This document shows, one piece after another, positions 3,705-11,770 of a DNA stretch of 11,770 nucleotides. The notes beneath the pieces are model-generated. The model made no database searches, had not been told where the DNA came from, and saw only the letters and a list, made by a program, of their open reading frames with translations. The stretch is from UHGV virus genome UHGV-0308383, one strand, 5' to 3'. The DNA is from a virus. The position numbers and the translations under genes were made by a program. The number at the start of each line of letters is the position of its first letter. Position 1 is the stretch's first letter.

Positions 3705-4048
3705 TACAGTTTCCTCATTAAATACTTTTTAAGTTGTGTGTTAGGTTTCTCAAAAACTTCTATAGAAGATATCTTGACAGATTCACCTCGCATACCAGTA
3801 TGTTTGAATATGTAATACTCTAACATCCCTATGTACTTTGCTGGTAAGTCATGCTTGACATACACCGTTACAGAATCTTCAAATTCGACAACCTTCGTAC
3901 CATCTTTGTAGTTAAACTCTTTAGGATGTTTGTAGTTATCTATGTCGTACATTAAAAAGAGTCTTTTACGTTGTAAGTCAAGCTTATTTGTTAAAGACTC
4001 TTTGATATCTGAGAAGTTTTTGTAAACTGTGACATGGAGCTTACTCAT
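3704..4048 (-). CDS. Hypothetical protein, 114 aa
   Basis: ATG at 4046..4048; start-stop overlaps with both neighbours. Confidence 0.7.
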   Translation of the reverse strand: MSKLHVTVYKNFSDIKESLTNKLDLQRKRLFLMYDIDNYKHPKEFNYKDGTKVVEFEDSVTVYVKHDLPAKYIGMLEYYIFKHTGMRGESVKISSIEVFEKPNTQLKKYLMRKL

Positions 4049-8847: not shown

Positions 8848-10263
8848 ATGAGCGAGTTATTTAAACATGCGCACCTTCATGCAGGTCGAACTGAAAATGG
8901 TGCTGTAAACCATACTTCATCAATGTCTGCTCTGGTAGACTTCTACAAAGCCGCTGGCTCAAGCCGTAGCAATGTAGAAATCTTACCAGACCTGTTCTAC
9001 AAAGCTTTGCGTGAGGATGTTGATGTTGCAGTTCGTATTTTACTGCATATGCGAGATGTACGAGAAGGTATGGGTGAGCGTAAAGCTTTCAGAACTGTTT
9101 TACTTCAAGCAATCGAAGACAAAGTTTTAGAACCTACACAGGTACTTCGTATTATGGATAAGGTTGCAGAACTTGGTCGTTTTGATGACTTCAAAATCTT
9201 CGTAGGCACTCGTTTTGAGACAGATGCCTTCAAACATTTAGAAGCAGCGTTACTAGACCCTGCAACAGCAGGTTTAGCAGCCAAGTGGCTACCACGAGTA
9301 AAACCACGCCACAAACAGTTTGTAAAACGTTTCTGTAAGTTTGCAAACTTAAGCGAGAAAGAGTACCGAACACTGCTATCTGCACTGTCTGATACGGTTG
9401 AGCAAAAAATCTCTGCTAATGAGTTTGGTAAGATTGACTACAGCAAGATTCCTTCACTCGCTGCTGCACGTTACCAAAAACTCTTTAACCGTAAAGATGG
9501 AGAACGCTACAAAGCTTACATCGAGTCATTATCAAAAGGTGAGGCTAAGATTAACGCTGGTGCTATTTACCCATACGATGTGATTAAATCTATTAAGTAT
9601 GGTAATGCAGATGTTGCTAATGAACAGTGGAAAGCACTTCCAAACTGGATGGCAGAAGGTGAGAACATCTTGTGTATGACTGATGTCTCAAGCTCAATGT
9701 CTTGGGTGAATTTCGGTTCAATCACGGCTCTTGATATTGGTGTATCTCTTGCCCTGTATGTAGCAGAACGCAACACAGGCTGCTTTAAGAATGAGTTAAT
9801 GGTTTATTCAACAAACCCTCACTTCATCGAACTGAGTGGTGATTTACGAAACCGTCATCGTCAGGTAATGCGTTATACTGAATATGGTTCAACTAACTTG
9901 CAAGCAGCTTTTGACCGCATTCTTGAGACAGGTAAGAGAAACAACTTGACTCAGAAAGATATGCCAAGTAAGCTTATCATCTTCTCTGATATGGAGTTCA
10001 ATCAGGTTGACGGTGCAAATGGTTGTACAAACTTTGAAGCAATTCGTAGTAAGTACAAAAAAGCTGGATACGAAATGCCACAACTGGTATTCTGGTACTT
10101 AGCAAACCGTAATGGTACTTGCGAAGTGTCTGTTAAGGATAACGGTGTAGCAATGGTATCAGGGTTCTCTCCAGCCACTTTAAAAGCTCTGCTTGGTGGT
10201 GAGAAGTTTGACCCAACCAGCGTAATGCTCAAAGCAGTAATGATTGACCGTTACATCTGGTAA
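8848..10263 (+). CDS. DUF2828-like protein, 471 aa: N-terminal helical region with a TENGA...LVDFY motif and a C-terminal von Willebrand factor A-like domain with a MIDAS-type motif
   Basis: MIDAS-like D-x-S-x-S (ILCMTDVSSSMS) and a later hydrophobic strand plus SD (LIIFSDMEF); N-terminal TENGAVNHTSSMSALVDFY...LRED...ILLHMRDVREGMGERKAF resembles the DUF2828 family (recalled, not searched); AGAAGAGAG upstream. Confidence 0.85.
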   Translation: MSELFKHAHLHAGRTENGAVNHTSSMSALVDFYKAAGSSRSNVEILPDLFYKALREDVDVAVRILLHMRDVREGMGERKAFRTVLLQAIEDKVLEPTQVLRIMDKVAELGRFDDFKIFVGTRFETDAFKHLEAALLDPATAGLAAKWLPRVKPRHKQFVKRFCKFANLSEKEYRTLLSALSDTVEQKISANEFGKIDYSKIPSLAAARYQKLFNRKDGERYKAYIESLSKGEAKINAGAIYPYDVIKSIKYGNADVANEQWKALPNWMAEGENILCMTDVSSSMSWVNFGSITALDIGVSLALYVAERNTGCFKNELMVYSTNPHFIELSGDLRNRHRQVMRYTEYGSTNLQAAFDRILETGKRNNLTQKDMPSKLIIFSDMEFNQVDGANGCTNFEAIRSKYKKAGYEMPQLVFWYLANRNGTCEVSVKDNGVAMVSGFSPATLKALLGGEKFDPTSVMLKAVMIDRYIW

Positions 10264-10276
10264 AAAGTTTTAAAAA

Positions 10277-10310
10277 GGGTATTGACAATATGTTTAATAC
10301 CCTTTAATAT
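10277..10310 (+). promoter_or_regulatory. Near-consensus sigma70 promoter: A-rich UP, TTGACA (10282..10287), 17-bp spacer, TAATAT (10305..10310); the -35 region lies inside a 7-bp-stem hairpin (GGGTATT 10277..10283 / AATACCC 10296..10302) that may also terminate CDS 8848..10263
   Basis: Motifs and spacing seen in sequence. Confidence 0.55.
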
Positions 10311-10372
10311 GTTCTACATAGAAACGAAATGAGAGCTTTTCTAAGATACTGAAAAATATTTTAAAAAAGTTC

Positions 10373-10405
10373 TTGACAACCACTAAAAAATAATGTTAAA
10401 GTGGT
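10373..10405 (+). promoter_or_regulatory. Candidate sigma70 promoter for the tRNA cluster: A-rich UP, TTGACA (10373..10378), 18-bp spacer, TAAAGT (10397..10402); overlaps a hairpin (ACCACT 10379..10384 / AGTGGT 10400..10405)
   Basis: Same TTGACA-N18-TAAAGT architecture as the element at 8779; about 25 nt upstream of the first tRNA. Confidence 0.45.
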
Positions 10406-10427
10406 TACATAGAGTTTGAAAAGTTTA

Positions 10428-10505
10428 TCTCTGTTTAGCTCAGCTTGGTAGAGCGTTCCGTTTGGGGCGGTAAGGCCGGAGGTTCAAGTCCTCCAACAGA
10501 GACCA
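10428..10505 (+). tRNA. tRNA-Pro (anticodon UGG), CCA encoded
   Basis: Manual cloverleaf: 7-bp acceptor stem, D-arm GCTC/GAGC with GG, anticodon loop TTTGGGG (anticodon 10463..10465), T-arm GGAGG-TTCAAGT-CCTCC; one T-T mismatch in the anticodon stem. Confidence 0.8.
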
Positions 10506-10512
10506 AATTAAT

Positions 10513-10590
10513 GTTCCAGTAGACAAAATGGTAAAGTCACCACTCTTTCAAAGTGGATATCTGAGGGTTCAAATCCCTTCTGGAACGCCA
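10513..10590 (+). tRNA. tRNA-Glu (anticodon UUC), CCA encoded, discriminator G
   Basis: Acceptor GTTCCAG/CTGGAAC, anticodon arm CCACT-CTTTCAA-AGTGG, T-loop TTCAAAT. Confidence 0.75.
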
Positions 10591-10597
10591 GTTTTGA

Positions 10598-10670
10598 CAG
10601 AAGACCAATTACAGCAAACTTAATCTTATTCATCTGAAGGTAAATCGGACAAAGAAGAGATTTGGTCTGG
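10598..10670 (+). repeat. Inter-tRNA repeat module I: CAGAAGACCAA-TTACAGCAA...TTGGTCTGG with a 7-bp terminal stem (AGACCAA 10602..10608 / TTGGTCT 10662..10668)
   Basis: Shares 5' and 3' motifs and terminal complementarity with modules II-IV. Confidence 0.6.
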
Positions 10671-10681
10671 TCATTAAGAAT

Positions 10682-10758
10682 TGCGGGTATAGAGAAAGGG
10701 CGTCTCACATGTCTCATTAGCATGGTATCGGCAGGTTCGACTCCTGCACCCGCCTCCA
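10682..10758 (+). tRNA. tRNA with anticodon CAU (Met or lysidine-dependent Ile2), CCA encoded; noncanonical acceptor (T1-C72 mismatch or 6-bp stem) and U at position 37
   Basis: D-arm GAGA-AAGGGCG-TCTC, anticodon arm CATGT-CTCATTA-GCATG (anticodon 10715..10717), T-arm GCAGG-TTCGACT-CCTGC, then ACCCGCC-T-CCA. Confidence 0.55.
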
Positions 10759-10764
10759 ATTTTG

Positions 10765-10824
10765 CAGAAGACCGTATTCAGCAACAAAATACTTTTTGCG
10801 GATAAAAGAAAAAACACGGTCTGG
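10765..10824 (+). repeat. Inter-tRNA repeat module II: CAGAAGACCGT-ATTCAGCAA...ACGGTCTGG with a 7-bp terminal stem (AGACCGT 10769..10775 / ACGGTCT 10816..10822)
   Basis: Same architecture as modules I, III and IV. Confidence 0.6.
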
Positions 10825-10835
10825 CAATGTATTAA

Positions 10836-10912
10836 GGTTAGGAAGCACATAAGGTATGTGCGGTCGCCTGTTAAGCGAATGGCACAGGGTTCGAATCCCT
10901 GACTAACCGCCA
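10836..10912 (+). tRNA. tRNA-Asn (anticodon GUU), CCA encoded
   Basis: Acceptor GGTTAGG/ACTAACC (one G-A mismatch), D-arm GCAC/GTGC, anticodon loop CTGTTAA, T-arm CAGGG-TTCGAAT-CCCTG, discriminator G. Confidence 0.7.
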
Positions 10913-10920
10913 AATTAAAT

Positions 10921-11008
10921 GTGTCGTTATCCCGTAGATGGTAGCGGTGGGGACTGTAAATCTCTTGTCATTGAGACTCGGTAGGTTCGACTCCTACACG
11001 GCACACCA
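10921..11008 (+). tRNA. tRNA-Tyr (anticodon GUA), class II with a long variable arm, CCA encoded
   Basis: 85 nt plus CCA; acceptor GTGTCGT/ACGGCAC (one G-U pair), anticodon arm GGGGA-CTGTAAA-TCTCT, variable-arm hairpin GTC/GAC, T-arm GTAGG-TTCGACT-CCTAC. Confidence 0.75.
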
Positions 11009-11013
11009 ATAAA

Positions 11014-11091
11014 GGTTATGTAGTTTAATCTGGTTAAAATACTCCCCTGTCACGGGAGATGATGAGGGTTCAAATCCCTTCGTAACCGCCA
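11014..11091 (+). tRNA. tRNA-Asp (anticodon GUC), CCA encoded, discriminator G
   Basis: Acceptor GGTTATG/CGTAACC (one G-U pair), anticodon arm CTCCC-CTGTCAC-GGGAG, T-arm GAGGG-TTCAAAT-CCCTT. Confidence 0.75.
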
Positions 11092-11179
11092 AATTATAAT
11101 AAGTATTTCAAAATGATGTTTTGAGAGGGCTATTTAGCCCCTCCCTTAAAGAGTTCTTACGAGTATTCTTTAAAGGAGC

Positions 11180-11255
11180 GGAAGACCAAATTCAGCAAAT
11201 ATGTATGATATTTTCAAGCCAATTTAATTTTGAAAAAATTTAAAACTTGGTCTGG
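11180..11255 (+). repeat. Inter-tRNA repeat module III: GGAAGACCAA-ATTCAGCAA...TTGGTCTGG with a 7-bp terminal stem (AGACCAA 11183..11189 / TTGGTCT 11247..11253)
   Basis: Same architecture as modules I, II and IV. Confidence 0.6.
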
Positions 11256-11268
11256 CTCAACAAATTTA

Positions 11269-11401
11269 CAGAAGACCGTTTACAGCAAAAACTTAAACAA
11301 TCTATTTCTCCGGTAAAGAAAAGGCGAAGGTTCGATTCCTTCACTCGGCAGATGTCGAGTTGGTGTAATGGTAGCACTTAAGATGATAAACAACGGTCTG
11401 G
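11269..11401 (+). repeat. Inter-tRNA repeat module IV (expanded, 133 nt): CAGAAGACCGTT-TACAGCAA...AACGGTCTGG with an 8-bp terminal stem, enclosing split tRNA-like fragments
   Basis: AGACCGTT 11273..11280 pairs with AACGGTCT 11392..11399; same end motifs as modules I-III. Confidence 0.6.
11326..11377 (+). pseudogene. Split, circularly permuted tRNA-like remnant: T-arm plus 3' acceptor strand (GAAGG-TTCGATT-CCTTC-ACTCGGC) sits immediately upstream of the complementary 5' acceptor strand plus D-arm (GTCGAGT-TG-GTGT-AATGGTA-GCAC)
   Basis: ACTCGGC (11343..11349) is complementary to GTCGAGT (11354..11360) with one G-U pair; no intact anticodon arm found by eye. Confidence 0.4.
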
Positions 11402-11420
11402 TAATTATCTTTGTAGATAA
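11402..11420. repeat. 19-bp direct repeat AATTATCTTTGTAGATAAG (second copy at 11648..11666); near-palindromic core TTATCT-TTGT-AGATAA
   Basis: Identical 19-mers seen at both positions. Confidence 0.7.
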
Positions 11421-11422
11421 GT

Positions 11423-11503
11423 TATTAAGCTTACCTGTGAGTATGCGACCACAAAGGGTGGATGGGTAAATTCTAGATTTAAACCCAAAAAGGCACATCG
11501 CTA
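11423..11503. repeat. Left arm of a perfect 81-bp inverted repeat (partner 11690..11770, truncated by the window end)
   Basis: Reverse complement of 11690..11770 equals 11423..11503; identity breaks at 11504 versus 11689. Confidence 0.85.
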
Positions 11504-11566
11504 GTTAGAGAAACTGTTGAGTGGGTGTTTCCAGCCGCGCAGGTGTTTCTCAGTTAAGGGTGAATT

Positions 11567-11642
11567 TGGTAGAAGTGGAGGGATTCGAACCCATCGCCTG
11601 TCAGATTAAAAGTCTGCCGCATCACCATTCTGCTACACTTCC
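11567..11642 (-). tRNA. tRNA-like gene on the minus strand, anticodon UUU (Lys-like), CCA encoded; noncanonical T-stem (3 G-C pairs flanked by mismatches) and G1-U72
   Basis: Minus strand reads GGAAGTG-TA-GCAGAATGGTGATGC-G-GCAGA-CTTTTAA-TCTGA-...GGG-TTCGAAT-CCC...CACTTCT-A-CCA; the anticodon loop matches the tRNA-Lys pattern. Confidence 0.5.
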
Positions 11643-11647
11643 ATTAA

Positions 11648-11666
11648 ATTATCTTTGTAGATAAGC
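11648..11666. repeat. Second copy of the 19-bp direct repeat AATTATCTTTGTAGATAAG
   Basis: Identical to 11402..11420. Confidence 0.7.
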
Positions 11667-11689
11667 TACCCAGACTTGCTTAAGGTCTG

Positions 11690-11770
11690 TAGCGATGTGC
11701 CTTTTTGGGTTTAAATCTAGAATTTACCCATCCACCCTTTGTGGTCGCATACTCACAGGTAAGCTTAATA
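11690..11770. repeat. Right arm of the perfect 81-bp inverted repeat (partner 11423..11503); runs to the window end
   Basis: Exact reverse complement of the left arm. Confidence 0.85.

Follow-up and report, generated by a model that had tools for sequence, protein, structure and literature searches.

Four structured RNA modules in a Felixounavirus tRNA cluster, probable Y-RNA-like partners of a Ro60-like protein encoded upstream

Introduction

The 11,770-nucleotide viral sequence UHGV-0308383 (the whole stretch analysed here, hereafter the window) carries towards its end a cluster of tRNA genes, among which lie four short repeated elements with complementary ends. What are these elements? The original prediction, made from the sequence alone, had read compensatory changes in their terminal stems as the mark of a conserved RNA structure, and had offered three options, namely small stable RNAs, precursor-processing signals or miniature mobile inserts. 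The comparisons reported below favour the first option and speak against the other two. We propose, with a probability of about 0.8, that the elements (modules I to IV) are non-coding RNAs of the Y RNA kind, the RNA partners of a Ro60-like protein whose gene (8848-10263, + strand) lies upstream of the tRNA cluster.

Judged by its sequence, the window is that of a Felix O1-like phage of the genus Felixounavirus; region 10280-11503 was 95-99% identical to about 125 such phages, whose hosts are Escherichia, Salmonella, Shigella and others.

Results

The four repeat elements are present where they had been described (10598-10670, 10765-10824, 11180-11255 and 11269-11401). Their common 5′ motif, AGACCRWWTWCAGCAA, occurs exactly at 10602, 10769, 11183 and 11273, always on the + strand and nowhere else in the 11.8 kb, which makes 4 matches for 0.01 expected from 200 shuffles, and a repeat search recovered the same direct-repeat family independently. 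The terminal stems of 7-8 bp are also as described, with AGACCAA/TTGGTCT in I and III and AGACCGT/ACGGTCT in II and IV (8 bp in IV), and these are exactly the stems by which I, II and IV are closed in RNAfold. Outside an AGA bulge, each module has in addition a 3-bp outer helix (GAC/GUC, UGC/GCA, AGC/GCU and UAC/GUA) that co-varies among the four copies. Module I (10596-10672, core 10602-10668) lies on the + strand, as do the other three, between tRNA-Glu and tRNA-Met, and consists of its stem, UUACAGCAA, a small internal hairpin and a 3′ G. Module II (10763-10826, core 10769-10822), between tRNA-Met and tRNA-Asn, carries AUUCAGCAA, as does module III (11178-11257, core 11183-11253), which has an A/U-rich internal hairpin. 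In module IV (11267-11403, core 11273-11399), an 8-bp stem joins 11273-11280 to 11392-11399, and is followed by (U)UACAGCAA at 11281-11288 and by a longer cargo that resembles a permuted tRNA. The modules lie 335-1140 nt downstream of the Ro60-like gene, on the same strand, and all four were retained in each of the nine other Felixounavirus loci examined.

Put in general terms, the design of a module runs (A)G, a stem of 7 bp without fixed sequence, UUACAGCAA, a variable cargo, the complementary stem strand and a G; the fuller consensus has a single-stranded U(U/A)(A/U)CAGCAA 3′ of the 5′ stem strand and an unpaired G after the 3′ strand. This design was sought around homologues of the Ro60-like gene, which are found in 710 of about 50,700 phage records, from Felixounavirus and from phages of Mycobacterium, Vibrio, Listeria, Staphylococcus, Campylobacter, Enterococcus and Bacillus. 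The viral sample comprised 80 contigs around homologues, 74 of which had proteins 39-48% identical, and was scanned for CAGCAA preceded by a stem with its complement downstream. Of the 74 loci, 60 had one or more modules on the gene strand no further than 1.5 kb away. Module density was 0.45 per kb beside the gene on its strand, and only 0.05-0.10 per kb on the other strand or elsewhere. With the register fixed (stem at −10 to −4 from CAGCAA, 7-bp partner), a partner was found for 106 of the 177 CAGCAA sites near the gene on its strand (60%). For comparison, sites within the gene, whichever their strand, and distant sites on the opposite strand had a partner in 12-16% of cases, opposite-strand sites close to the gene in 25%, and distant sites on the gene strand, among which there are further modules, in 29%. 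The linkage was seen again in 80 loci from bacterial and archaeal assemblies (among them Lachnospiraceae, Chloroflexota, Akkermansia, Prochlorococcus and a Pacearchaeota bin) with proteins 33-42% identical: 101 of 320 sites on the gene strand had the partner, against 10 of 210 on the other strand, and 55 of the 80 loci were positive for the design. Directly beside the gene, the design was found in Listeria phage LMSP-25, Campylobacter phage F371, Staphylococcus phage S-CoN_Ph16 and Mycobacterium phage Finnry; in S-CoN_Ph16 the closest tRNA lies 1.4 kb off, on the far side of a coding sequence, and in Finnry 2.7 kb off.

Co-variation was examined on 97 distinct module ends, anchored on CAGCAA and the 3′ stem and reduced to 35-nt constructs (22 nt around CAGCAA and 13 nt around the 3′ stem). 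These replaced a MAFFT alignment of whole short modules, in which the 3′ stems were misaligned. All 7 pairs of the stem vary on both sides (274 cells, 30 extra pair types), G-U pairs included. CAGCAA is invariant in 97 of 97 ends, which had been chosen on that core, and a G follows the stem in 93 of them. Two flanking positions that had not been selected pair at chance level. A general outer helix past the bulged G was considered and rejected, as about 45% of the cells pair, which is what chance gives; the 3-bp outer helix is a Felixounavirus feature. The co-variation from which a conserved RNA structure had been predicted is genuine, and we conclude that the modules are a family of structured, co-varying RNAs strictly linked to the gene.

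The product of that gene is a protein of 471 amino acids with a helical ring together with a von Willebrand factor A (vWA) domain, the latter bearing the MIDAS (metal-ion-dependent adhesion site) motif DVSGSM. It matches Pfam DUF2828 (E 3e-29) and DUF7788 (E 3e-43). The single-sequence model of the protein reached a predicted local distance difference test score (pLDDT) of only 44.6, and an AlphaFold2 model made with a 103-sequence alignment (pLDDT 91.4) was used instead. When this model was compared to the PDB with Foldseek, the 12 top matches were all Ro60/TROVE structures, with E values of about 1e-8 and template modelling (TM) scores of 0.41-0.67 over ring and vWA domain (0.55-0.67 for all except D. 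radiodurans Rsr, 2nvo); they included Ro60 from Thermus phage phiLo, Xenopus and human, and Deinococcus Rsr. The matches after these were isolated vWA domains. A search of the PDB with the protein sequence, then with its profile, found nothing, so that the Ro60 relationship is detectable by fold alone. On the strength of the model, the product would belong to a divergent Ro60 clade. The homologues in Mycobacterium phages are already annotated as ‘Ro-like RNA binding protein’. Two basic motifs are invariant in the ring half, RDVRGGxGER near residue 69 and AKWMPR near residue 145, and are candidate RNA-contact sites.

The complete set of tRNA-like arms in module IV and the tie of the modules to the gene upstream of the tRNA cluster had both escaped the original prediction. 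RNAfold gives module IV as a five-way junction. In order, on the + strand, its cargo holds a ‘V’ or anticodon-like hairpin (11305-11321, UUUCU-CCGGUAA-AGAAA, 5 bp with a 7-nt loop), a T arm (11326-11342, GAAGG-UUCGAUU-CCUUC), a closed acceptor-like stem of 7 bp with no encoded CCA (11343-11360, ACUCGGC-AGAU-GUCGAGU) and a D arm (11363-11377, GUGU-AAUGGUA-GCAC), which is the order of a circularly permuted cloverleaf. When the two halves were rejoined, at a junction chosen by hand, ARAGORN called a tRNA-Thr(ggt) with all four arms in tRNA geometry. In the window as it stands, the Rfam tRNA model matched 11293-11343, with the anticodon-like and T arms, at 22 bits. Canonical tRNA features are nevertheless missing from module IV: the loop CCGGUAA has C and not U at position 33, and the acceptor stem is closed by AGAU and lacks CCA. 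Unlike the six neighbouring tRNAs, which all encode CCA, module IV is therefore a mimic and not a decoder, as are YrlA RNAs of the same layout.

Circularly permuted tRNA genes occur in the red alga Cyanidioschyzon merolae and in some archaea, and two-piece tmRNAs derive from permuted ssrA genes. As in module IV, the 3′ part of the cloverleaf there precedes the 5′ part, and the acceptor ends are joined by a short loop. Unlike in the permuted tRNA genes, the break in module IV falls between the D and anticodon arms and is bridged by the terminal stem of the module family. No splicing-endonuclease route of the kind that matures permuted tRNAs is known from bacteria.

Modules of about 105-140 nt with the layout of module IV are present in many loci. 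A covariance model, R1, was built from 12 such tRNA-like modules, none of them from Felixounavirus. It matched module IV end to end (54.1 bits, E 5e-10), and also modules II (25.5 bits, E 0.0006) and I (23.6 bits, E 0.0015), there skipping the cargo. Over 1.17 Mb (158 loci, both strands), all 81 matches of R1 at E ≤ 0.01 were on the gene strand, 12 of the 81 being training sequences. Larger cargos, of about 180-260 nt, were observed within the same handle of stem and CAGCAA, and make up at least two groups with conserved sequences of their own, two of which measure 225-262 nt. Such modules are found at L012 2840-3064, L040 3409-3659 and L055 3066-3318, and at L017 5471-5721, L036 4793-5032, L047 5404-5633 and L065 5754-5936 (locus and positions). 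At L063 3734-3833, the handle encloses an un-permuted tRNA as cargo (3753-3824, 52.9 bits with the Rfam tRNA model).

Scans of the modules against Rfam, both at gathering score and at E ≤ 10, returned only sub-threshold matches to tRNA-type, YrlA and Class I families. Ribozymes and other known RNA families were ruled out by these scans. The YrlA model (RF02553, gathering score 69 bits) gave sub-threshold matches of 26-43.5 bits on long modules of distant loci, with search-wide E values down to 2.4e-6. In such matches, cmscan aligns CAGCAA with the YrlA sequence CGGCGAA, with mismatched pairs. The pairing of CAGCAA with a 3′ CUG that this implies, equivalent to YrlA stem 1, was rejected because of mismatches at 2 of its 6 pairs and because of its competition with the 7-bp stem that co-varies.

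Class I RNAs of Dictyostelium are about 60 nt long, begin with AAG and end with CUGU; their ends pair in a 6-bp stem that has no fixed sequence and has CCUUACAGCAA next to its 5′ strand, and they have been reported as unique to dictyostelids (PMC7919456). Besides tRNA and YrlA, the Class I model (RF01414) was the sole family to match short modules repeatedly. These matches were sub-threshold, at 19.7-30.7 bits for a gathering score of 41.5 (in the window, 24.0 bits with E 0.06 for module II and 19.7 bits for module I), and 25-27 bits with this model also arise by chance in whole eukaryotic genomes. UUACAGCAA, identical in modules I and IV, accounts for 9 of the 11 nt of CCUUACAGCAA; AAG and CUG are present, and the spacing between stem and motif is 1 nt shorter in the phage RNAs than in Class I. 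Examples from the supplement of the same paper, GUUGACCUUACAGCAAACC...CGUCAACUG and GGUCGUCUUACAGCAAUC...GAAGACCUG, can be compared with the phage AGGUUCCUUACAGCAAAC...GGAACCUGG. Like the short modules, Class I RNAs are A/U-rich and close to 60 nt, with a terminal stem of 6-7 bp conserved in structure and not in sequence; like the modules, they have (CC)UUACAGCAA directly 3′ of the 5′ strand, an (A)AG start and a CUG end. Unlike the modules, they are eukaryotic and dispersed, have their own Dictyostelium upstream sequence element (DUSE) promoters, and have as their one proven partner Rnp1A, an RNA recognition motif protein. The modules belong to a phage operon whose promoters are of the sigma-70-like type, and do not fit a eukaryotic gene with an upstream DUSE element. 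In Arabidopsis, the locus ath_can_1 (UGUUUUCAUUACAGCAAUC...GAAAACUG) obtained 40 bits from the Class I model, a candidate that the authors dismissed (PMC7919456, Supplemental Table S4).

As for the setting, ARAGORN called tRNA-Pro, Glu, Met, Asn, Tyr and Asp, all on the + strand, between 10429 and 11091, and a tRNA-Lys at 11567-11642, which is on the − strand in the window and on the + strand in the reference phages. Two of these calls, tRNA-Met (10682-10758) and tRNA-Tyr (10921-11008), are below the Rfam tRNA gathering score, and some relatives have the latter annotated as a pseudo-tRNA; the two may be phage tRNAs of an atypical kind. Two sigma-70-like promoters precede the cluster on the + strand (10282-10310 and 10373-10402), each with 10 of the 12 consensus positions. 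The number of such promoters equals what shuffling leads one to expect, so that they are mere consensus matches. On the − strand, open reading frames at 11240-11498 run across modules III and IV and are annotated in relatives as ‘hypothetical protein’ (AYO145A_047, similar to wV8 gp048; L002 2463-2720); this is probably a spurious gene call on non-coding RNAs.

The last 270 bases of the window form a fold-back; the inverted repeat that closes it (11423-11503 with 11690-11770) is perfect over its 81 nt. By BLAST, 11566-11770 is the reverse complement of what the reference phages have after 11503, and the 62 nt at 11504-11565 showed no match to the reference locus. The fold-back is probably an assembly chimera or artefact, or else a snap-back molecule, and leaves modules I-IV untouched. 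The related AGAC...GTCT hairpin that had been pointed out at 11670-11686 does exist, within this stretch inverted relative to every reference phage. It is part of a cargo-less mini-module, ACAGACCUUAAGCAAGUCUGGG (11665-11686, on the − strand solely owing to the fold-back), made up of a stem of 4 bp (AGAC/GUCU), a loop of CUUAAGCAA, and GG. In the reference orientation it reads ACAGACCTTAAGCAAGTCTGGG, and it lies in the reference phages on the + strand, directly upstream of tRNA-Lys. Its appearance is that of a fifth copy that has collapsed to the handle.

Two further observations concern Listeria phage LMSP-25. A ROOL-like RNA match (L085 928-1479, 88.5 bits, gathering score 99.1) lies 1 kb upstream of its Ro60-like gene, and a gene for an RtcB-type ‘tRNA splicing ligase’ (L085 5308-6455) 1.3 kb downstream. 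This neighbourhood is reminiscent of the rsr-yrlBA-rtcBA operon of Salmonella.

Discussion

Bacterial YrlA RNAs are encoded less than 4 kb from a Ro60 gene, on the same strand, and carry GNCGAAN0-1G near their 5′ end; in their tRNA-like domain V comes first, then T, the closed acceptor stem and D; in M. smegmatis, where the acceptor stem has 7 bp, RNase P cleaves the YrlA, and CCA is added to it (PMC4201824). The survey behind this description was made only in genomes annotated with a TROVE protein, 22 phages included (PMC4201824). In Thermus phage phiLo, Ro60 binds two adjacent Y-like RNAs, Yrl1 and Yrl2, together with the host PNPase (PMC12135203). YrlA and phage Y RNAs lie, as the modules do, beside a Ro60-fold gene and on its strand, usually several per locus; their two ends are base-paired, and a short motif, conserved and single-stranded, adjoins the 5′ strand; their cargo is modular, often with one tRNA mimic per locus in the order V, T arm, closed acceptor, D arm; and in M. 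smegmatis YrlA is processed from a common precursor. The position and strand of the modules fit a YrlA gene neighbourhood, and the neighbour has the Ro60 fold, but its Pfam families are DUF2828/DUF7788 and not TROVE. Of the four modules, only IV has the V-T-closed acceptor-D domain. Unlike YrlA, the modules carry U(U/A)(A/U)CAGCAA, at a constant distance of 3 nt from a stem of 7 bp, with a G on the 3′ side; many are only 50-65 nt, other cargos reach 225-262 nt, and in the window they are interleaved with true tRNA genes.

Several results weigh against taking the modules for Y RNAs. In the comparison with Rfam that had been proposed as a check, no family of Rfam 15 covered the modules and none reached its gathering score; in the window, RF02553 in particular was without any match at E ≤ 10. 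In place of the GNCGAAN0-1G of YrlA, the modules have CAGCAA as conserved motif, and the protein encoded at 8848-10263 has no Pfam TROVE match. Because motif and Rfam score fall short of YrlA, and the protein of TROVE, we class the modules as RNAs of the Ro60/Y RNA kind and not as YrlA. Within the family, module III gave no R1 match in the window search even at E ≤ 10. Folding energies are ordinary (RNAfold z −0.65 to −2.14), so that thermodynamics alone would not have picked out the modules, and their support is comparative. The 100% pairing of the stems is itself a product of selection, the stems having been used to choose the modules; with pairing built in, the independent support is the enrichment by position and strand. 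Finally, Bas63 gp130, from a Felixounavirus, is structurally Ro60-like, is encoded directly upstream of tRNA genes and counters the Ppl defence, and supplying only gp130, whether from a plasmid or from T7, is enough for plaques to form again on Ppl hosts (10.1101/2024.10.10.617714). That gp130 is the orthologue of the 8848-10263 product rests on the description in this preprint, whose authors guessed that ‘some tRNA genes are possibly Y RNAs’. As gp130 is sufficient, the RNAs are dispensable for at least the Ppl phenotype, which argues that they serve another or an additional function. On the other side stands the conservation of the handle across proteins that are 33-48% identical, in unrelated hosts and on the gene strand, which is the pattern of a co-evolving partner, as with Ro60 and YrlA. 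A literature search retrieved no paper describing the modules or any RNA linked to DUF2828, and no functional study of DUF2828/DUF7788, the name being only mentioned in passing. The mentions of DUF2828 proteins concern plants, apart from one tardigrade study.

Alternatively, the modules could be free-standing structured RNAs, for instance tRNA-like decoys for anticodon nucleases or RNA-targeting defences, which would be near the gene through a shared early ‘RNA toolkit’ region and form no complex with its product. The tRNA mimicry of module IV would suit such a role, as would the action of gp130 against Ppl without modules, the wealth of tRNA genes in these loci and the RtcB ligase gene nearby in a Listeria phage. 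We nonetheless hold this unlikely: the constant stem, CAGCAA and G are kept within a few hundred bases of the gene, and on its strand, over all the protein divergence and the unrelated hosts just mentioned, and a decoy role covers only tRNA-like cargo, leaving the short modules and the conserved handle unexplained.

The two other options of the original prediction are not supported. Modules I and II are 7-11 nt from tRNA ends and all four are within the tRNA cluster, as would be expected of spacer structures that guide the processing of a polycistronic tRNA precursor, such as entry sites for RNase III or RNase E. We regard this as very unlikely, since modules accompany the Ro60-like gene even where no tRNA is adjacent, as in S-CoN_Ph16 and Finnry, most tRNA junctions, here and in other clusters, have no module, and a cleavage site would account neither for an invariant single-stranded CAGCAA nor for tRNA-like or 225-262-nt cargos. 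That the modules are miniature inverted-repeat mobile elements, or remnants of such elements inserted between tRNA genes, is extremely unlikely. Short terminal inverted repeats, several copies per locus and a spacing between modules II and III that varies among close relatives would agree with it. However, the ‘terminal repeats’ are not alike from copy to copy and change together in the manner of RNA pairs, G-U included; copies are restricted to one locus per genome and always to the strand of the neighbouring gene; no flanking repeat resembling a target-site duplication stood out on reading the module ends; and conservation of the internal motif across phages of different bacterial phyla points to selection on RNA.

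If the modules are, as we propose, RNA partners of the Ro60-like protein, we infer the following course for their binding, processing and role in the cell. The modules would be transcribed with the tRNA cluster from the putative promoters at 10282 and 10373, and would probably be released from the transcript by tRNA-trimming enzymes, in view of the closeness of modules I and II to tRNA ends. With its acceptor stem of 7 bp, module IV may be a substrate of RNase P, like the YrlA of M. smegmatis. The constant handle (stem, single-stranded CAGCAA and 3′ G) is the likely protein-binding site: the Ro60-like ring would bind stem and CAGCAA in the way that, in Y RNAs, the stem's conserved 5′ strand is bound by Ro60. 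The variable cargo, a short hairpin in I-III and a tRNA mimic in IV, would be the effector part, and might tether or gate; the tRNA-like domain of IV might serve as a decoy, or might bring in an exoribonuclease or a host factor that recognises tRNAs. The resulting particle could adjust RNA decay or repair in the infected cell, and could contribute to the counter-defence role reported for the orthologous Bas63 gp130.

A wider relationship may be considered, which we find doubtful. RNAs made of a stem, UUACAGCAA and CUG might form one ancient family accompanying Ro60-like proteins of the DUF2828 type wherever such proteins are found, with the Class I RNAs of Dictyostelium as its eukaryotic members, inherited or acquired from bacteria or phages. 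If this were true, Class I RNAs would have a Ro-like protein partner, and similar RNAs would perhaps be found in plants, where DUF2828 genes are present. Such a link, if real, would provide a testable partner for an abundant, developmentally regulated class of eukaryotic RNA whose mechanism has long been unexplained.

For the phages and bacteria themselves, the proposed pairing would give partner RNAs to a large and almost unstudied protein family, DUF2828/DUF7788, and would widen the Ro60/Y RNA field beyond the roughly 5% of bacteria and the few phages that have a recognisable TROVE gene. It would attach concrete RNAs to a known phenotype, the countering of Ppl by the Felixounavirus orthologue. 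The signature of the modules is simple to search for, so that thousands of such RNAs may be annotated and the spurious open reading frame calls lying over them removed. With a constant handle, and cargos that go from a 20-nt hairpin to tRNA mimics and 250-nt domains, the modules would offer a system for asking what Ro-type rings tether.

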